From the NCBI GenBank assembly GCA_009780275.1, contig WRAI01000004.1, positions 21,212 to 85,211 of the forward strand: 64,000 bases of DNA, read 5' to 3'. A program made the translations under genes and the position numbers. This DNA is from Oscillospiraceae bacterium. Lineage in GTDB: Bacteria; Bacillota; Clostridia; Oscillospirales; UBA929. Positions 2,254 to 60,313 of the stretch are shown here, piece after piece. The notes below the pieces were generated by a model. The model saw only the letters and a program-made list of their open reading frames with translations, had not been told where the DNA came from and searched no databases. Each line of letters opens with the position of its first letter. Position 1 is the stretch's first letter.

Positions 2254-3720
2254 TTGATAATGCAGAATGTAAAATGCAGGATGGCAGCGATTGTTTTTGC
2301 TGCTCTGCTGTTGCTCGGGGCTTGCACTCCATCAAACAGCAATAATAACCGTAGAGACCATGAATTTGTTGATGGCGCGGCGTTTCGCGTGTTGTTGCAG
2401 GAGGCGGGGCTGCCGGTGGAGCATTTAGATGTCGAAGACATACAAATCGTTCGTGCTGATGTACTGTTTGGCTATGCCAATGATTTATTCGACATTCACG
2501 CCATTACCGATGCCTGGGGCGGCAGGCATGTGGGATACACATTTGGTTGGTTTGCGGAAAATAATGATAACCTTAACAACGATGCATCTATTACTCGTGC
2601 GCAGGCGACCCATTTTGTCAACGGTGTGCGTGAGGTTAAAGATAGGCGTGCCAGCAGCTTGACGGCGTTTTACGCCATTGCGTCATTTGACCAAATTCAT
2701 ATGATTGACGCGCTTGACGTCGTCAGCATGGGTTGGAGCCGTTTTGATATTATTGACGGTGAGGCGGTGTTTAACCTCAGTGTACAAAATGACAATGAAT
2801 ACAGCATTCCGTTAGGTTACGCCTTGCCAATGGAGCGCGCACGAGCAAACAATGTGCCTGTTTATCTGATGGTGGCAGGCAATATGGCGCATCACGGCGG
2901 CATGACGACAGCGGCGTACATTGTGCGTGACCCTACCATGCGAGAGTCGGCGCTGAACGACTTAGTCGATGCGGCGGAAAATGGCGTTATTTCACCTGTC
3001 AGCGGACAACGGATTTTCTTTGACGGCATTACGATGGACTTTGAGGAAATGCGTGGTGCCGAGACACGTGAAGCGTACTCGCAGTTTATTATTGATTTGC
3101 GTACGCGACTGCCCGAGGGATTTGGGCTATTGATTTGTGTGCATCCGGCCGTGGGGCGGGGAATGCCATTCTTTGATGCCTTTGATTTTCGTGTGTTGGG
3201 CGAGCATAGCGACGGCTTGATTGTTATGGCACATGACTATTACGCTAAATCGCTGTCGGAAGAAGAGCTTCTCTTGGGCGAAGTGGCTACGCGTACGCCG
3301 CCCTCGCCGATTGCCGATGTTTATTACGCCATCTATGCCGCGACGCACTCCGAGACGGGGACTGACCCGGCCAATGTATGGCTGGCGATGTCATTTACCG
3401 GCGTGCAGTGGCAAATGCGGGACGGCGTGGTGCAGAATCGCATTCCGTTGCGTCCGACCAACGACGCCATTGAACGGCGACTGCCGCATGCCACAGTGAC
3501 TCATGGTGCGTCGGGAAACCCTCGCGCAGTGTGGACTTATAATGACTTAGAAAACGTGATGTTTTTTGAAGATGCCGTGTCGACCATGCAACGGCAGCGG
3601 CTGGCCGATATGTTCGGGTTGGCGGGGCTTTCGTTGTGGCGGTTGGGCAATGTGCCGGACGGGAGTGCCGATGTGGATATGGACGCTTGGGATAGGTTGT
3701 TGGCACATAGGGATAGATAG
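2254..3720 (+). CDS. GH18-like glycosyl hydrolase lipoprotein (YaaH/chitinase-like fold)
   Basis: Lipoprotein signal AAIVFAALLLLGAC. GH18-type motif FDGITMDFEEM (DxxDxDxE variant). Track start is the TTG at 2254; the ATG at 2281 (MAAIVF..) is the more likely start. Confidence 0.7.
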   Translation: MIMQNVKCRMAAIVFAALLLLGACTPSNSNNNRRDHEFVDGAAFRVLLQEAGLPVEHLDVEDIQIVRADVLFGYANDLFDIHAITDAWGGRHVGYTFGWFAENNDNLNNDASITRAQATHFVNGVREVKDRRASSLTAFYAIASFDQIHMIDALDVVSMGWSRFDIIDGEAVFNLSVQNDNEYSIPLGYALPMERARANNVPVYLMVAGNMAHHGGMTTAAYIVRDPTMRESALNDLVDAAENGVISPVSGQRIFFDGITMDFEEMRGAETREAYSQFIIDLRTRLPEGFGLLICVHPAVGRGMPFFDAFDFRVLGEHSDGLIVMAHDYYAKSLSEEELLLGEVATRTPPSPIADVYYAIYAATHSETGTDPANVWLAMSFTGVQWQMRDGVVQNRIPLRPTNDAIERRLPHATVTHGASGNPRAVWTYNDLENVMFFEDAVSTMQRQRLADMFGLAGLSLWRLGNVPDGSADVDMDAWDRLLAHRDR

Positions 3721-6540: not shown

Positions 6541-7371
6541 ATGACGATATCGACGTTAAAAATTGAGTTGATCGAGCGGTTGAGCGAAATGGCGGCCAAT
6601 CCGGCGTTGGAAGCTGCTGAATTGCTGGGACTGGCGGTTGGTATGACCAAAGAGGAACTTGTTGTCGAGGCGCGTGAGCAGGTTTGGCCGGAAAAGGTGC
6701 GCCGTGCGCGGGAACTGTGTAAGCGGCGGTTGTTAGGCGAGCCGTTGGCATATATTTTGGGCCAGTGGGAGTTTTGTGGGCTGACGTTTGAGGTGACGCC
6801 TGATACGTTGGTGCCACGGATTGACACAGAGGTGCTGACGAATCAAGCCATTGAGGCAGTTGAGACGAGCGGAAAAGATATGCCCAAAGTGTTGGATTTA
6901 TGCTGCGGTAGCGGCTGCGTGGGGCTGACAGTTGCCATGAAATGTTCGGTTGTCAATTTGACATTGAGCGATATTTCGGCGGCGGCGCTGGGGGTTGCTC
7001 TGCGGAACGCGCAGAAATTGGGCGTTAATGTGTCGCTTTTGCCGCACGATATGTTGCAATCGCGTCCTCCGGGGTTGTATGATGTGGTGGTATGCAATCC
7101 GCCGTACATACCACGCGAGGACCTGCTGGAGCTCGACAGAACAGTGCGCGACTATGAGCCGCACTTGGCGCTTGACGGCGGGCGTGACGGGCTGGACTTT
7201 TATCGCACGCTGGCATCGTATGCTGCTAAGTTGCTGACACCGTACGGGATGCTGTTGCTAGAATGCGGGTTGGGGCAGCATGAGGAAATTATCGCGCTGT
7301 TCCCGGGCTGGCAGGCAGTGGCACATAAAGACACGCAGGGGATTGAGCGAGTGATTGCGTTGCGGATATGA
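6541..7371 (+). CDS. prmC: release factor glutamine N5-methyltransferase
   Basis: 276 aa. SAM motif LDLCCGSGC and catalytic NPPY (VVCNPPYIP). Confidence 0.92.
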   Translation: MTISTLKIELIERLSEMAANPALEAAELLGLAVGMTKEELVVEAREQVWPEKVRRARELCKRRLLGEPLAYILGQWEFCGLTFEVTPDTLVPRIDTEVLTNQAIEAVETSGKDMPKVLDLCCGSGCVGLTVAMKCSVVNLTLSDISAAALGVALRNAQKLGVNVSLLPHDMLQSRPPGLYDVVVCNPPYIPREDLLELDRTVRDYEPHLALDGGRDGLDFYRTLASYAAKLLTPYGMLLLECGLGQHEEIIALFPGWQAVAHKDTQGIERVIALRI

Positions 7372-7491
7372 TTATTAGGGATGCATATCAGATGTTCTGC
7401 ATCGAGAATGTATGTAGGCGGGACGCTGTGAGCAATGTCCCTACATAAATGTGAAAGAGAAAAATACAATAGAAAAGGACGGTATAACACT

Positions 7492-8625
7492 ATGTCAGCA
7501 GACAAGAAAAAGGCATTGGATACGGCGCTCGCGCAAATCAAAAAGGATTACGGCGAGGGGGCTGTTATGCGATTGGGGTCGGAGGCGCGGCTAAATGTCA
7601 AAGCCATTTCGACGGGGTCGCTTTCGCTCGACTTGGCATTGGGTGTAGGCGGATTGCCACGCGGCCGGATTGTTGAGATTTACGGACCGGAGTCTTCGGG
7701 CAAGACGACATTGACGCTGCACGTCATCGCGCAGGCGCAGAAAATGGGCGGTGAGGCGGCGTTTATTGATGCTGAGCACGCGCTTGACCCGCAGTATGCC
7801 GCAGCGTTGGGTGTTGATATTGAGAACTTGCTGGTTGCGCAGCCCGACAATGGCGAGCAGGCATTGGAAATTACCGACTCGCTGGTGCGGTCGGGAGCAT
7901 TGGATGTCGTTGTTGTGGACAGTGTTGCCGCGCTTGTGCCGCGTGCTGAGATTGAGGGCGATATGGGTGACAGTTTTGTTGGTCTACACGCACGCTTGAT
8001 GTCGCAAGCATTGCGGAAACTGGCGGGCAGCATTGCACGGACGAATACAGTTGTCATTTTTATCAACCAATTGCGTGAGAAAATCGGCGTTGTCTATGGG
8101 TCACCTGAGGTTACAACGGGCGGGCGGGCGTTGAAGTTTTACTCCAGCGTGCGGATTGACGTGCGCAAAAAAGAAGCGATTAAAGTATCGGATATCACGA
8201 TCGGCAACCGTACGAGCGCTAAGGTTGTTAAGAATAAAATCGCGCCGCCGTTCAAAGAGGGCGATTTTGACATTATTTTTGGACAGGGCATCTCGCGTGC
8301 CGGCGAATTGGTTGATTTGGGACAAATGCTGGACTTAGTGCAGAAGTCGGGATCATGGTACTCGATGGGCGATACGCGATTGGGGCAAGGTCGTGAGAGC
8401 GCGACACGGTATATGCTTGACAACCCCGAAATTGCCGCCGATTTGGAGGCCAAAATTCGTGAGCAGGCGAGTCAGTTGAATTTGTCGATTGTCAAGGGCA
8501 AGAAGAAATTTGCACCGGTGAAGGATACCAAGCCACAGGTTGCTGCAGCCACACCTCCTGCGGCAGCGAGTGGAACGGCTGCTGCGAGCAAGCCGATCGC
8601 TGTTGTAGCGGATGACGATGAGTAA
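7492..8625 (+). CDS. recA: recombinase RecA
   Basis: Walker [11 protein letters not shown]1/L2 loop regions, canonical N-terminus [21 protein letters not shown]. Long Ala/Pro-rich tail ending in DDDE. The track ORF starts upstream at 7435. Confidence 0.97.
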
Positions 8626-8639
8626 TATGTTTATCGTTT

Positions 8640-9080
8640 ATGACAGATAGTTTGCAAAAGTGCAAAGAAGTTGCTGCCGCCATGCTTGGTCGCCGTGCTT
8701 TGTCCGAGCATGAGCTGGGCAGCAAGCTGGAAGAAAAAGGCTATGAAGAGGCAGACATTCATGCAACCTTGTCGTATTTGCGTGATTATGGGTATGTTGA
8801 CGACGCTAAGTATGCTTTGTCTTTTGCACAGACGCGGCATGGGCGCGGCCAGGGGTCGTATCGCATTCGGCAGGAATTGCGGCAACGCGGCGTGGATGAG
8901 GAGATTATTGAGGATGTGTTAACACAGCTGCCTGAGCCGGACGACGCCATACAGAAAATTTTGCGAAGCAAGCTCGGTAAAGTTAACGACGAGGACACGC
9001 GGCGTAAGGCGGCGGCGGCGCTGTCACGCAGAGGGTTTAGCTGGGATGAGATAAATGCGGGAATATCGCACTGGGAGTAG
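8640..9080 (+). CDS. recX: recombination regulator RecX
   Basis: 146 aa helical-repeat protein immediately after recA; RecX-like ..RALSEHELGSKLEEKGY...YLRDYGYVDD.. Confidence 0.8.
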   Translation: MTDSLQKCKEVAAAMLGRRALSEHELGSKLEEKGYEEADIHATLSYLRDYGYVDDAKYALSFAQTRHGRGQGSYRIRQELRQRGVDEEIIEDVLTQLPEPDDAIQKILRSKLGKVNDEDTRRKAAAALSRRGFSWDEINAGISHWE

Positions 9081-56238: not shown

Positions 56239-57807
56239 ATGCAACAGCTGCAAACATGGAAATATAGTGTAACCCATCGCTGTACGGCATGGGTCACGCG
56301 TGTTGCCAAGCAGAGTGTGTTTTATCAAGTATTGCAGGCAATGGTGCGTATGTTCACGCAATCTTATACTGCTGGTATTGTTTGCCGTTTGCTGCGGCGT
56401 GATTGTGCGACAGCGCATTCGCGCTATGCGAGGATTGTGCGGCATGCAGACAACAGGCTTCGCCCTGCGGGTGAGGCAATCAAGCGCGGTTGGACAAACA
56501 GTTTACTCGGGCGGCTTGCCCATGCTTTGCGGTGGCGTGAGGCGCGTGACAACAGCCTGTTGGCCTTTTCTGTGCGGCGAACATGTTTGGTGGTGTTGGC
56601 ATTATATTTGCCTATAGATGTTATTCTGCGCGCCGTGTCACCCACGCCGCTGGTTCCCGCGTTGTGGGATGCCGTGTTGTTTGCCGTGGGCATTGCGATT
56701 GTTCTCGCGCGGCGCATGCAATCAAATCGCACAATTGATGGCATTACCGGCATTGATGCGCCGATGCTTTTCTTTATGGCAATTGGCGTATTCTTGTGGT
56801 TGGTCAATTCGCCTGATATGTTGATTGGCTTTACGGGTTTGCGTACAGTGATTCAGTTTATGCTTTTCTTTTTCTTTGTGACATGGCTGGTTGAGACGCG
56901 TGAGGACATTAAATTTTTTCTATACCCATTTTTGGTGTTGGGCTTAATTGTGGCGTTTCACGGCATTTGGCAGTACGCCACAGGCGTGCCGATGCCGGGA
57001 CGTTGGGTTACCGGCGTTGAAAATGAATTTATTCGCACGCGGGCTTTTTCATTCATTGGCAGTCCCAATGTTATGGGTTCATTGCTTATTCTATGGGTTC
57101 CATTGATGGCGGCAATGGCGTACAGGTGGAAGAGTTTTTATCTGAAAGTTGTGGCGTGGGCAGGCGTAGGTGCGATGGCGTTGGCGAGTGTGTTAACCTT
57201 TTCGCGCGGCGGGTGGATTGGTTTGGCCGTTGCGTTGCTATTGTTTGCGCTGATTGTTGACCGCCGATTGTTGCTCTTGTTGGGCGGTGCAATACTGCTT
57301 GCGATGTCAATTCCGGCGGTGGGCGGGCGCATTGCTTTTATGTTCTCGGAAGATTTTCGTGCGGCGTCGGCGCTGGCAGGGCGCGATATGCGTTGGGATT
57401 TTGGTATGAATCTATGGCGCGAGGGCAATGTTTGGCTTGGATTCGGTTTGGGTCGCTTTGGCGGTGCGACGGCAATGAACAACCAAGTTATCCCTGAAAT
57501 GAATTATTTTTATATGGATAACTATTATGTCAAGACGCTTGTCGAGATGGGTTTGCTTGGTTTGCTGAGCTTTATTTTCCTTTGCCTAAGTGGCTTGTGG
57601 AACGCCGCGCGAAGCATTTTCGCCACGCGGGAAAATCGTACTGATAAAGTATTACCTGCCGCGATTTTTTGTGGTGCGGTGGGCATCTTGGTGCATTGCT
57701 TTTTTGAAAATGTCTTTGAAGTGCCGTATATGGTGGCGTATTTTTGGGCATTGTTGGCAATTAGCGGGCGGTGGGCTGCATTAATAAAGACAGAAAAAGC
57801 GGCATGA
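56239..57807 (+). CDS. O-antigen ligase / Wzy_C family membrane protein
   Basis: Polytopic protein with a ..TFSRGGWIGLAVALLLF.. loop typical of the Wzy_C domain. Confidence 0.7.
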   Translation: MQQLQTWKYSVTHRCTAWVTRVAKQSVFYQVLQAMVRMFTQSYTAGIVCRLLRRDCATAHSRYARIVRHADNRLRPAGEAIKRGWTNSLLGRLAHALRWREARDNSLLAFSVRRTCLVVLALYLPIDVILRAVSPTPLVPALWDAVLFAVGIAIVLARRMQSNRTIDGITGIDAPMLFFMAIGVFLWLVNSPDMLIGFTGLRTVIQFMLFFFFVTWLVETREDIKFFLYPFLVLGLIVAFHGIWQYATGVPMPGRWVTGVENEFIRTRAFSFIGSPNVMGSLLILWVPLMAAMAYRWKSFYLKVVAWAGVGAMALASVLTFSRGGWIGLAVALLLFALIVDRRLLLLLGGAILLAMSIPAVGGRIAFMFSEDFRAASALAGRDMRWDFGMNLWREGNVWLGFGLGRFGGATAMNNQVIPEMNYFYMDNYYVKTLVEMGLLGLLSFIFLCLSGLWNAARSIFATRENRTDKVLPAAIFCGAVGILVHCFFENVFEVPYMVAYFWALLAISGRWAALIKTEKAA

Positions 57808-57864
57808 TGTCTTAGGAGCAGTATTCTGCAGCTCTACAAGATAAAATTTTTTTGCAAATACATA

Positions 57865-57896
57865 TTGACGATTGCCAATGTATATGATATCATATA
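57865..57896 (+). promoter_or_regulatory. arsR promoter with an overlapping 16-bp perfect palindrome (candidate operator)
   Basis: TTGACG (57865-57870), 17 nt, TATCAT (57888-57893). The palindrome TATATGAT|ATCATATA (57881-57896) covers the -10. Confidence 0.6.
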
Positions 57897-57922
57897 GACA
57901 GTCTTCGATGTGAGGTGCAACT

Positions 57923-58246
57923 ATGGACAATCAAAAACTAGAACAAGTCACCCGTTTGAAAGCATTGGCTGATCCCAATCGTTTGCAAATTCTCCGTGTG
58001 TTGGCGCGCAATGAAAACTGTGACTGCGATGAAAATTGTGCTTGTCACTTATTGGAGAATGCTAATGTGTCGCAGCCTACGCTATCGCATCATATGAAAA
58101 TTTTGTGTGATTGCGGCATTGTGCTGGGGTGCAAAGCGGGGAAGTGGATGCACTACCGGCTCAATCGTGACGTCATCAATGAACTGACGGCGTTCTTGGA
58201 TGGATTGTGGAATACAAACGAAGGCTGTTTATGCAAAAGGAGGTGA
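57923..58246 (+). CDS. ArsR/SmtB family metal-sensing transcriptional repressor
   Basis: 107 aa. ..LKALADPNRLQILRVL.. and recognition helix ..VSQPTLSHHMKIL.. Cys-rich: CDCDENCAC, CDC, C, CLC. Confidence 0.9.
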   Translation: MDNQKLEQVTRLKALADPNRLQILRVLARNENCDCDENCACHLLENANVSQPTLSHHMKILCDCGIVLGCKAGKWMHYRLNRDVINELTAFLDGLWNTNEGCLCKRR

Positions 58247-58251
58247 ATGTC

Positions 58252-58341
58252 ATGCTGAAAGAGAATAAATGTGATTGCCCGTGCGGTTGCGGTGAAGTTT
58301 GCAGATGCACACCTAACTGCGGTTGTGGTTGCAAGGGTTAA
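58252..58341 (+). CDS. unannotated 29-aa cysteine-rich peptide (metallothionein-like)
   Basis: AGGAGGTG (58238-58245), 6 nt, ATG 58252. Encodes MLKENKCDCPCGCGEVCRCTPNCGCGCKG, ends TAA 58339-58341, and is followed immediately by a strong terminator. Confidence 0.55.
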   Translation: MLKENKCDCPCGCGEVCRCTPNCGCGCKG

Positions 58342-58379
58342 GCAGAAATCCCCACGAAAGTTTCGTGGGGATTTCTGCT
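58341..58379 (+). terminator. strong hairpin terminator of the arsR-peptide unit
   Basis: AGCAGAAATCCCCACG-aaagttt-CGTGGGGATTTCTGCT (16-bp perfect stem). Confidence 0.8.
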
Positions 58380-58526
58380 ATCTTGTAGTTTATGAAAAGC
58401 AAAGCACTACATATCGTTTGAGCTAAAATACCGGTTGACGGAAATAGATAAGTATGATATTTTGAGGTATACCATTCTTTACTTATGTCATCCGGCGCGA
58501 AGCAAAAACAGAAGGGAGGGGAGAGA

Positions 58527-59408
58527 ATGGCAAGTCATTTTCGTCCGCCAAAGCCTCCGCCAAAAGGCCCATTAAAACCGACTGTTGCGCCTGGCGGCAG
58601 TATGCCTCCTGTCATGGCGCCGTTAGATGAAAGAACCTCTCATGACACTATTGATGATAAAAAGACGCTTGAAATGCTACCGGACACGCCTTTGCCATGC
58701 CCGCCGGAACCTGAAATAGCACATGCAAAAACCTCAGAGCAAGAAGAGCTGTCCTCCCTCTATGTTGCCATTGACTATCAAATGCTGAATGGTCGCATTA
58801 AAGGTGGTTTGATACAGATATTCCGGCGCTTTCTTTTTAAATCACGCATTTCCGGCATTCTTTTCTATGCGGTTTTGGCTCTTTTTCTTGTTGTTGTGGG
58901 CATTTTCAGCGGCGTTGGCGATGATTCCCCACGTTATTTCTTTGGGTTTTCTGCGTTGAGAGTCATCAGCGATAGTATGGACAGCGAAATTCCGATGAAC
59001 TCATTGATTATTATCCGCAGTGTTGACCCAGATGCAGTCCGCGTTGGCGATGATATTACATTTACCGATAGCCGCAACCGCACGATTACACATAGGGTCA
59101 TTGAAATTATCGAGGATTACGAGGGAATAGGAGAACGAGGCTTTCAAACGCAAGGTGTTGATAATATTCGCCCGGACAGAGAGATTGTCGTACCTGATAC
59201 CATTGCAGGGCGCGTGGTGTTTCACAATTTATTCCTTGGCAGGTTGTCAAGATTTATTTCTCAAAACGCGTTCCTCGTCAGTGTGTTCAGTATACTGTTT
59301 GTCGGGTTAATTGTGGCATTGAAGGTCTTTCTGTTGCCCGGCAGAGGGAAATTGCCGCAAACGCCTGGGCTTAATCTAAGCAATTCGTTTGCAAGCAAGG
59401 TCGAGTAG
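58527..59408 (+). CDS. SipW-type (S26B) signal peptidase I with a Pro-rich N-terminal extension
   Basis: Catalytic Ser in ISDSMDSEIP and His in ITHRVIEI; single TM. About 130 N-terminal residues are rich in P/K/E. ATG 58527 preceded by GGGAGGGGAG. Confidence 0.85.
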   Translation: MASHFRPPKPPPKGPLKPTVAPGGSMPPVMAPLDERTSHDTIDDKKTLEMLPDTPLPCPPEPEIAHAKTSEQEELSSLYVAIDYQMLNGRIKGGLIQIFRRFLFKSRISGILFYAVLALFLVVVGIFSGVGDDSPRYFFGFSALRVISDSMDSEIPMNSLIIIRSVDPDAVRVGDDITFTDSRNRTITHRVIEIIEDYEGIGERGFQTQGVDNIRPDREIVVPDTIAGRVVFHNLFLGRLSRFISQNAFLVSVFSILFVGLIVALKVFLLPGRGKLPQTPGLNLSNSFASKVE

Positions 59409-59414
59409 CATAAT

Positions 59415-59446
59415 AAAAAGGTAAGCGAGGCATCACTTGCCTTTTT
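59415..59446. terminator. bidirectional rho-independent terminator
   Basis: AAAAAGGTAAG-cgaggcatca-CTTGCCTTTTT. Confidence 0.75.
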
Positions 59447-59455
59447 ACTATGTGA

Positions 59456-60223
59456 TCATATTTTTCGCGCGACAACAACCAACCTATAATCTGGTCGTGA
59501 GTTGATACAGGTTGAAAGTGTAATCAGTTTATCGCCATAGACCGCAGTAAGGCCTGTGTCATACAGGGAAAGCTCGATACAGCGGCGCAGAAAGTCGTCA
59601 AATTCAGCTTCGTCTGCGGCATTGACAAATTGGTGATATGGAAATTGAGTCGGGTTAGCGATAAAGATAAGGATGATTTCATACATGCCGAACCCGGCGC
59701 GTGTGTCGAAAGTAATCAGTGAATGCTCAGCAAAAAAGGATTGTTGTCTGTAATTCAGCAATTGGCCAAACATGCGGTCATTGCCCATGTTGTGCGCGAA
59801 AATGGTAATGTTGTCGCTGTGTGGATCGATGGAGGCGTGTTCGAAGATATAAGGTGTGCCGAATCGACAATCTTCACCCTCGAAATTGCGTCGCAAATAG
59901 AAATTCGGGCGATCAGGCGTGTGCATAACGGGATAGTTTATGTTTGTGCCGTCAATGGTAATCCACCCTATCATATCAGGGTTTTGCGTGAATAGCATGC
60001 CGTATTGGTCATATGTTGTCCATACGGGCGGTGGCGTGTCATTAGGCACTTGCGGCGGCAGCGATGGCGGTCGTTCGATTTGTGATGCCAGCGCGTTAAA
60101 TTGTGCGCGGACATCGCGCTGCTCGGAAAAGTAGCGCCAAAGTTGCACGCCTGAAACGACGAAGACGCCAGCCAGCAGAATGATGATAATTGTCCAAATA
60201 TATGAGCGCCGTCGGCGTGCCAT
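59456..60223 (-). CDS. srtB: class B sortase
   Basis: N-terminal anchor, ..GWITIDGTNINYPVM.., His in IFAHN, catalytic Cys in LITLSTC, Arg in YRLVVVARK. ATG 60223 preceded by GGAGGT at 7 nt. Confidence 0.88.
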   Translation of the reverse strand: MARRRRSYIWTIIIILLAGVFVVSGVQLWRYFSEQRDVRAQFNALASQIERPPSLPPQVPNDTPPPVWTTYDQYGMLFTQNPDMIGWITIDGTNINYPVMHTPDRPNFYLRRNFEGEDCRFGTPYIFEHASIDPHSDNITIFAHNMGNDRMFGQLLNYRQQSFFAEHSLITFDTRAGFGMYEIILIFIANPTQFPYHQFVNAADEAEFDDFLRRCIELSLYDTGLTAVYGDKLITLSTCINSRPDYRLVVVARKI

Positions 60224-60313
60224 TGCAGCTACCTCCATGGAATAAGTTGATACTTTTATTATACGGCATTATCACCAGAAAGGCAATAGTGGCGCAAATG
60301 TATGCTTTTTTGC

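Follow-up and report, generated by a model that had tools for sequence, protein, structure and literature searches.

In a 64,000-nucleotide stretch of contig WRAI01000004.1 from an Oscillospiraceae bacterium (the window, in whose numbering coordinates are given unless a contig is named), we analysed a compact locus in which a gene for an ArsR/SmtB-family repressor (arsR) is followed by an open reading frame (ORF) of 29 codons, whose product is rich in C-x-C (CxC) pairs. An original prediction had described this arrangement as a candidate clostridial metallothionein module, and the coordinates it gave for arsR, for the Shine-Dalgarno (SD) sequence, ATG and stop codon of the peptide gene and for two 12-mers within this gene all match the sequence. 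The locus consists of the following features:

57865..57893, plus strand: sigma-70-type promoter with -35 TTGACG, a 17-nt spacer, an extended TG and -10 TATCAT (10/12 matches).
57860..57917, plus strand: candidate ArsR operator, a dyad across the promoter, made up of a local perfect palindrome and a degenerate copy of a long dyad.
57881-57896 of the window: perfect 8+8 palindrome TATATGAT/ATCATATA, inside the candidate operator.
57912..57917, plus strand: SD of arsR, GAGGTG (the relatives keep TGAGGTG).
57923..58246, plus strand: arsR, 107 aa, with ATG at 57923 and TGA at 58244-58246.
58238..58245, plus strand: SD of the peptide gene, AGGAGGTG, embedded in the final arsR codons and stop.
58252..58341, plus strand: CxC peptide gene of 29 codons, MLKENKCDCPCGCGEVCRCTPNCGCGCKG, with ATG at 58252 and TAA at 58339-58341; a candidate mini-metallothionein.
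58341..58379, plus strand: terminator-like hairpin with an 18-bp stem and a 3-nt loop (-36.6 kcal/mol; z = -8.15 against shuffles).

The peptide contains 9 Cys in 29 residues (31%), arranged in six C-x-C pairs, and has no aromatic residue and no His. A six-frame scan of the 64-kb window returned it as the only ORF segment with at least 8 Cys per 20 residues, and control loci totalling about 560 kb yielded two segments of this kind, both differing in pattern, so that this Cys density is not a matter of chance. Near-duplicated 12-mers are present at 58282-58293 and 58318-58329, and growth of the gene by internal duplication is plausible. The SD of the peptide gene, which is much stronger than that of arsR, lies inside the arsR end and serves an ATG placed 5 nt past the stop, and the translational coupling to arsR that had been proposed held up. 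The claim that the ORF is unannotated proved right as well, since the ENA calls on an identical contig (L105) leave 1824-2105 empty. The exact peptide is absent from a collection of 15 billion proteins, among which we found no exact copy of any of 10 peptide variants, including a GTG-extended form and the product of an overlapping Ala-rich frame. The 44-aa GTG-extended ORF had no match in 5.8 billion proteins, a profile built from five peptides had no match in a protein search, and a PDB profile search with the peptides was empty. Pfam and NCBIfam hold no family for the window peptide or for any of its relatives (E up to 1-10), and tblastn of the peptide against 72,556 plasmids returned noise only (E >= 1).

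Homology and structural modelling indicate that the upstream gene is a bona fide ArsR/SmtB-family metalloregulator. Its product matches Pfam HTH_5 (1.3e-11; 44.6 bits against a cutoff of 22) and the ArsR/SmtB metalloregulator model NF033788 of NCBIfam (81.4 bits against a cutoff of 55). The AlphaFold model, with a predicted local distance difference test score (pLDDT) of 84.5, has the canonical topology a1-a2-a3-aR-b1-b2-a5, and the matches in the PDB, weak but specific, are ArsR, CadC-like and SmtB chains. Cys residues are found at positions 33, 35, 39 and 41, at 62 and 64, at 70, and at 102 and 104. In the model the cluster 33-41 (ENCDCDENCAC, residues 31-41) is placed at the alpha2-alpha3 junction, the classical ArsR/CadC sensory site, as candidate metal(loid) ligands; Cys 62/64 are placed where the recognition helix ends, and Cys 102/104 form a CxC in the C-terminal tail.

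The only protein identical to the window ArsR comes from an Oscillospiraceae metagenome-assembled genome (MAG), and the next relatives, P0002-P0005, are 64, 60, 56 and 53% identical and share with it a distinctive insertion, NENCxCxExCxC, in the sensor loop. Within this insertion, ArsR residues 30-41 (58010-58045), NENCDC-DENCAC, resemble a tandem-duplicated ExCxC, of which a sister clade described below has a single copy (GELCAC); the regulator of the window clade has gained Cys, and its cargo is likewise rich in Cys. C35, C39 and C41, which form a C-x3-C-x-C arrangement at the alpha3 site, are invariant in the alignment of the window clade and the sister clade.

Relatives of the locus were reached through ArsR homology and by scanning metagenome contigs with a DNA pattern for the ArsR motif peculiar to the clade. 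This yielded seven distinct loci of the NENCxCxExCxC clade, namely the window, L003, L004/L005, L006, L001, L089 and L103, with ArsR proteins 53-64% identical; L001 is identical to L002, and L004 is close to L005. Conservation of the ORF in relatives, on which the original prediction depended, is borne out, as a CxC-rich ORF occupies the same spot behind arsR in 7/7 distinct clade loci located. The peptide of L003, the 27-mer MTDKIVCPCGCGEVCICPTDCGCACCE, has CPCGCGEVC.C...CGC.C in common with the window peptide and by this likeness is plainly homologous to it. The peptides of L004/L005, MDKILSCECGC(D/E)CECCK(N/D)CEKCCCCDPDCECGCDCECCKDNDCC, and of L006, MSNDTKAAKKPDNGCSNPNCFCDPCNCGPTCACTGEDCTCGTVCDCASDCECGSGE, are likewise encoded separately from arsR. 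The members of the family have 27-58 residues and 9-19 Cys (20-43% Cys) in 4-10 CxC pairs, with at most one aromatic residue; His is all but absent, and the peptides lack both hydrophobic and signal segments. An SD of the AAAGGAGGTG type stands 6-10 nt 5′ of the peptide ATG in 8/8 clade sequences, including those in which the peptide is fused to ArsR.

Codon comparisons were used to follow selection on the peptide genes. In four independent pairs the differences in the Cys frame were distributed as 29/27/70 over codon positions 1/2/3 (chi-square p = 8e-7), and Nei-Gojobori estimates for pairs of peptide genes gave proportions of nonsynonymous differences (pN) of 0.17-0.27 and of synonymous differences (pS) of 0.5-0.98, the latter near saturation; for the close pair L004/L005 the nonsynonymous distance (dN) was 0.02 and the synonymous distance (dS) 0.19. 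Each pair had 7-19 aligned Cys-Cys columns, with switching between TGT and TGC, and a change from Cys to another residue was absent in 7/8 pairs. The expectation that the Cys codons would be preserved was confirmed by the third-position excess, by pN values far below pS and by the TGT/TGC switches, which indicate that these codons are kept under purifying selection. On this comparative evidence, the peptide gene is real and is under purifying selection in the Cys frame.

It remains barely credible to us that the ORF is non-functional, being either a chance ORF in TGC- and GGT-rich DNA or the wrong frame of an Ala-rich product. The peptide sequence is of low complexity, and in two loci gene callers, the JGI caller among them, took the +1 Ala-rich frame (L004:688-807 and L106:1572-1670, the latter on an identical copy of the window module), which speaks for such a view. 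The third-position excess and the low pN relative to pS are, however, specific to the Cys frame, which is also the frame served by the SD and ATG at all loci and the frame of the ArsR fusions. In the window the Ala-rich frame (58271-58426) runs across the terminator hairpin. The Ala-rich frame as the true product was ruled out by the codon-position statistics, by the placement of the SD and by the fusions. Separate peptide ORFs of the clade have been called as a gene nowhere, and the calling of the Ala-rich frame is a systematic blind spot of annotation, through which such genes are mis-called as well as missed. Two further candidates were rejected. A leader peptide or attenuator was ruled out by the location of the ORF, at the 3′ end of the operon before the terminator, and by selection on its amino-acid sequence, and a precursor of a ribosomally synthesized and post-translationally modified peptide (such as SCIFF/ranthipeptide) by the lack of a conserved maturase neighbour and by the roughly 6 residues that precede the first Cys.

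The regulatory sequences of the module are shared within the clade as well. An alignment of the promoters of seven clade members showed an invariant TTGACA-17-TAT(C/A)AT, and ATAGA past the -10 and TC.AT are likewise invariant. In L004, L006 and L103 dyad arms of 19-22 nt, ACATATTGACAATCATCTATAT and ATATAGATAGTCATCAATATGT, which are 79-89% complementary, enclose the -35 and follow the -10. This location is where the operator of an autoregulatory ArsR is expected, and we therefore regard the dyad as a putative operator. The hairpin of the window does stand directly after the TAA, as had been noted, but its stem comprises 18 pairs (58341-58379) and not 16 bp; its tail, TATCTTGT, has a moderate T content, and a scan for consensus terminators gave no call. 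Strong hairpins with U tracts come immediately after the peptide ORF in L003, L004 and L089, and some 40 nt further on in L001, while in L006 no hairpin was found within 70 nt past the peptide ORF. A search of 57700-58600 against Rfam gave sub-threshold miRNA-like matches on the hairpin only and no known RNA element. With promoter and dyad conserved and hairpins after the peptide ORF, the proposed compact unit of promoter, dyad, repressor, peptide and terminator held up.

The genes around this unit change from locus to locus, with Wzy_C and SipW/sortase in the window, DUF2087/APH in L001 and an SDF symporter in L089, and among the clade loci no synteny is conserved beyond arsR and the peptide gene. 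Since the flanking genes differ in every locus, arsR and the peptide gene form a functional unit. In the window the next promoter-like site (58435-58463) serves the following gene; the stretch 58435-60238 encodes a signal peptidase of the SipW type (TIGR02228, 8.6e-22), which is extended at its N-terminus by a long segment rich in Pro and Lys, and contains, convergent with it, a sortase gene on the minus strand (59456-60238), a cluster unrelated to the metal module.

In three of the seven clade loci the peptide equivalent is fused in frame to ArsR. P0003, the protein of L001/L002, carries it within a single chain of 172 aa, and L089 and L103, both found by the DNA-pattern scan, encode in-frame ArsR-peptide fusions, that of L089 having about 158 codons from its ATG. 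These fusions bear on the main rival of a metal-sequestering function, in which the peptide would serve ArsR as a sensory accessory, an attached or detachable tail that donates ligands, or that buffers the ion locally and thereby sets the threshold and steepness of derepression. A single polypeptide in 3/7 loci would be Rosetta-stone evidence of an interaction between the two parts, and production is tightly coupled by overlapping or ATGA start/stop junctions in L003, L004 and L092 (a locus outside the clade, described below). Some ArsRs bind As(III) through their C-terminal Cys, and the window ArsR keeps a CxC at 102/104. ArsRs of the sister clade already carry short Cys-rich tails. Nevertheless, all three fusions hold a strong internal SD and an ATG at the junction, which suggests that free peptide is still made; one member of the family, in L108, is found on a 5-kb contig without arsR; and the SD of the peptide gene exceeds that of arsR, in keeping with an output of peptide above that of the repressor. 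We consider this sensory role unlikely, though less so than the other functional alternatives, and the fusions hint at a closer tie between sensor and buffer than that of a simple repressor and its cargo.

The tails just mentioned were seen in many of the sister-clade ArsRs (L008-L087), which often end in short Cys-rich sequences such as CICKEGECNCGK, CICNKCNNTNCICE and GCCCE. Comparison of these forms suggests a continuum from a tail through a long fused tail to a separate peptide.

The architecture also occurs outside the clade. In L092, a GC-rich 439-kb contig from another metagenome, which turned up since the pattern devised for the ArsR motif fitted the DNA of its peptide, a 119-aa ArsR/SmtB protein (6547-6974, minus strand; context 6547-9080) is 29% identical to that of the window and reaches 59.8 bits with NF033788 against the cutoff of 55. 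The TGA of this arsR overlaps the ATG of a 23-codon CxC ORF, MKNENCCCGENCACGENCSCGGK, and the gene is downstream of an RND pump and of a gene for a DF-family thioredoxin-fold (seleno)protein. Judged by sequence, L092 is an independent recurrence of the arsR-peptide architecture in an unrelated lineage. A profile made from the P0003 tail and the window peptide had a single match among 1.84 billion representative proteins, P0121 (MEKRTKPDNGCDNPHCFCEPVCLCAPDCKCTEEKPCECGQSK), which has 42 aa and is the only family member called in a database. It is encoded in L108 (921-2792), behind a His-rich CDF cation exporter and on the same strand, and is likewise preceded by an SD of the AAAGGAGGTG type; no arsR was found on this 5-kb contig. 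Between the CDF gene and P0121 lie about 870 nt in which 17/33-nt tandem repeats abound, and a 209-aa gene called at 1919-2548 of L108 looks spurious. As read from these contigs, two lineages that are unrelated to each other show the link between the peptide gene and ArsR, and the gene ends the transcription unit.

The peptides beside metal exporters, in L092 (RND) and L108 (CDF), also raise the question of a metallochaperone similar to ArsD or CopZ, which, instead of storing a metal(loid), would deliver it to an exporter or an enzyme whose gene lies elsewhere. We regard this as very unlikely. The member in L108 is indeed on the same strand as the CDF exporter, that of L092 follows the RND pump, and ArsD itself stands directly after arsR in 5/77 sister-clade loci, but the window, L001, L003, L004 and L006 have no adjacent transporter, the neighbour in L089 is a dicarboxylate/amino-acid symporter and not a metal pump, and length and number of Cys (9-19) vary widely, unlike in a chaperone specific for one partner. 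ArsD has about 120 aa, a thioredoxin-like fold and Cys12/13/18, and the peptide has no match to Pfam ArsD, although the same library detects ArsD in the sister loci.

Other CxC-rich sequences were encountered during these searches. L088, L091, L093, L094 and L096 encode GrpE proteins with N-terminal extensions of 70-120 residues that contain CxC and CNENCTCGE-type motifs, with dnaK following; the two that were tested match Pfam GrpE at 6e-33 and 2e-32, and the contigs are AT-rich, one of them from a human-gut assembly. A metallothionein-like domain on the chaperone co-factor GrpE is odd. In L097, an AT-rich contig, a 20-codon ORF, MSNENCKCCECCSCECEKCC (3261-3320, minus strand), is found beside a thymidine-kinase-like gene and a gene for a 1030-aa repeat protein, with no regulator evident nearby. 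The ORF at L101:549-1060, which extends past the contig end and is without a Pfam match, begins with a hydrophobic segment and continues with many tandem C(N/S)ENC(T/N)C units.

The sister clade comprises, among the matches listed, 80 loci from GTDB species representatives (L008-L087), with ArsRs 42-55% identical to that of the window; within the same scope, the species representatives include no member of the NENC clade. A CxC mini-ORF stands behind arsR at all loci located of the NENC clade and at none of the 80 listed loci of the sister clade. According to a Pfam scan, the first gene downstream of arsR is of an arsenic-resistance type in at least 48 of 77 sister loci; the genes in this place encode an ArsP-type permease (23/77), C_GCAxxG_C_C (13/77), ACR3 (Pfam SBF; 8/77), an ArsM-like methyltransferase (6/77), ArsD (5/77), ArsA (3/77), the low-molecular-weight protein-tyrosine-phosphatase type of ArsC (LMWPc; 3/77) or a thioredoxin-fold protein (3/77). 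Because these downstream genes are mostly for arsenic resistance, the window regulator is placed in a mostly arsenic-type repressor lineage.

A different small Cys-rich partner of ArsR was noted in L007 (381-569) and L017 (2330-2515), where ArsR relatives (49% and 44% identical, respectively) are followed by an overlapping gene for a 62-aa Cys-rich protein with a weak match to DUF6485 (MKCANVEKCACPKETCPNHKKCCDCV...). The next gene in L007 encodes a ferredoxin-like protein with a CGCECDCG insert.

With a sister clade that mostly controls arsenic-resistance genes, the window ArsR may respond not to Zn, as in SmtB/SmtA, but to As(III) or a different soft metal(loid). As(III) or Sb(III) is favoured by the arsenic-type sister clade and by the S3-type Cys triad, and Cd, Zn, Hg or Cu by the CDF (L108) and RND (L092) neighbours and by the extra Cys pairs. 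A non-metal thiol chemistry, in which ArsR would sense a persulfide, polysulfide, oxidant or electrophile and the peptide would be a sacrificial thiol, a carrier of sulfane sulfur or an Fe-S ligand, has in our judgement only a slight chance of being right. BigR/SqrR-type members of the ArsR family sense persulfides, and the window ArsR has a match to the BigR model, but at 37 bits this is far under the cutoff of 155. A second point in its favour is the DF-family thioredoxin-fold (seleno)protein encoded next to arsR in L092; against it, arsenic or metal regulators make up the sister clade and the closest relatives that have been characterised, and the CxC spacing is typical of metal-thiolate clusters and not of redox CxxC pairs.

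We compared the module with known metal-responsive systems. In SmtB/SmtA of Synechococcus and BxmR/BmtA of Oscillatoria an ArsR/SmtB sensor is likewise paired with a small Cys-rich protein, a sink which derepression by metal would induce. In smtB/smtA, however, the two genes are transcribed divergently, whereas here they are co-transcribed and coupled, overlapped through ATGA or fused, and the relatives of the window regulator are arsenic-type and not Zn-type as for SmtB. The window peptide differs from BmtA and SmtA, whose family has a zinc-finger-like fold with Cys and His as ligands, in lacking a Metallothio_Pro match, His ligands and aromatic residues, and has about half the size of SmtA. 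The earlier view that the peptide does not resemble the SmtA/BmtA type was upheld, the peptides having no Pfam or NCBIfam match, no His and no result in the PDB profile search.

Among the known bacterial metallothioneins is MymT, the copper metallothionein of Mycobacterium tuberculosis (PMC11672702). The window peptide resembles it in being a very small, at first unannotated Cys-rich bacterial peptide found below annotation cutoffs; MymT itself is metal-induced and holds its metal in thiolate clusters. The search with the profile in 1.84 billion proteins, whose only match was P0121, showed no similarity to MymT, with no direct pairwise comparison made. MymT is under a CsoR-type regulon and is not known to be controlled by an adjacent ArsR. 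Recent reviews treat bacterial metallothioneins as rare and name only the cyanobacterial and pseudomonad BmtA type, MymT and a few others, and the statement that a clostridial metallothionein is undescribed was supported by full-text literature searches aimed at Clostridia, which found nothing.

The closest compositional likeness is to the beta-domain of vertebrate metallothionein (MT) and to the Neurospora-type Cu-metallothionein, with nine and seven Cys, respectively, in about 25-30 residues, a dominance of CxC and no aromatics or His. The MT2 beta-domain has the same Cys register, CxC-x5-CxC-x3-CxC over 18 residues. The pairwise E values are about 0.01 only and the phylogenetic and genetic contexts are unrelated, and we read the likeness of the window peptide to the MT beta-domain as a compositional convergence.

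As for ars operons (ACR3/ArsB, ArsD, ArsA, ArsC, ArsM, ArsP), the window ArsR is 42-55% identical to a Firmicutes/archaeal clade of their regulators and has their C-x3-C-x-C triad at the alpha3 site. The module differs from them in its cargo, which is a peptide of a sequestering type and not a protein for efflux or transformation, and in the sensor loop of the window clade, with its extra ENCxC. According to a 2025 article, a gene for intracellular sequestration has yet to be found within ars operons (PMC12093948), a gap that the module would fill if its ligand is arsenite. The fusions P0003, L089 and L103 also resemble the ArsR/metallothionein sponges engineered for the bioaccumulation of arsenic and metals, with the difference that the latter are laboratory constructs and the former are natural.

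Taken as a whole, we interpret the locus, with a confidence a little better than even, as an autoregulated operon of an ArsR sensor and a metallothionein-like sink for a thiophilic metal(loid), in which the peptide would probably act as a small sponge for metal, of a kind not described before in bacteria. As to operator binding, inducer, metal binding and stoichiometry, we infer the following scheme. One promoter under the dyad operator would drive both the thiol-rich ArsR and the translationally coupled nine-Cys peptide. When a thiophilic metal(loid) fills the Cys sites of ArsR, the repressor would leave the operator and both products would be made, and the peptide, produced from the stronger ribosome-binding site, would sequester the ion in cytoplasmic thiolate clusters, for which the chemistry of metallothioneins suggests, by analogy, that nine Cys would suit M(II)3, Cu(I)~6 or As(III)3. 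Once the level of free ion drops, apo-ArsR would shut the operon again. Induction of the peptide by metal is suggested by its co-transcription with ArsR and by the recurrence of this linkage in L092.

Several observations weigh against this interpretation. The family is tiny, with nine peptides, and the samples that could be identified are termite-gut metagenomes; the likeness of the short type (window, L003) to the KPDNGC-type is one of position, composition and Cys spacing, with no statistically supported alignment, and the searches with the peptides in 5.8 billion proteins, the PDB, Pfam and NCBIfam were all empty. The sister clade mostly controls genes for efflux or modification and not sinks. 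The module of the window has no accompanying exporter, and a sink lacking an exit is an unusual strategy of resistance. The U tract of its terminator is poor, and of the long dyad it has a degenerate copy. Finally, the three ArsR fusions suit the role of a sensory tail at least as well as that of a bulk sink.

A wider reading, which we advance tentatively and think doubtful, although a shade less so than the sensory-accessory role, is that ArsR-coupled and ArsR-fused CxC mini-proteins would be a hidden, polyphyletic class of bacterial metallothionein-like peptides, systematically missed by gene callers on account of their shortness or of a preference for the Ala-rich alternative frame, and acting as a built-in buffer of the sensor. 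With sensor and sponge made in a fixed ratio or as one polypeptide, the buffering capacity would set the switching threshold.

Some of the habitats could be traced. L106, the identical copy of the window module, comes from the IMG metagenome 3300010369, which a published study assigns to a higher termite from Petit Saut (French Guiana), Labiotermes labralis, and to segment P1 of its gut (PMC7800795). The metagenome prefix of L089, Ga0082212, is that of the MAG Nt197P3bin121, and the Nt197P3 bins derive from a termite-gut metagenome (PMC9386147). The remaining members are from JGI metagenomes and ENA assemblies.

The module would provide a sequence-defined, evolutionarily validated candidate metallothionein family in anaerobic gut Firmicutes, to which standard annotation is blind. 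What is new is a very small metallothionein-like peptide family that is coupled to, or fused with, its ArsR sensor, and since the architecture arose in an unrelated lineage too, many more CxC ORFs behind metal sensors could emerge. The family peptides, with their 27-58 residues and 9-19 Cys, are short enough for direct synthesis and might be used as metal-binding tags of minimal size. Should As(III) prove to be the inducer, the peptide would represent the first arm for sequestration found naturally in a regulon of the ars type.

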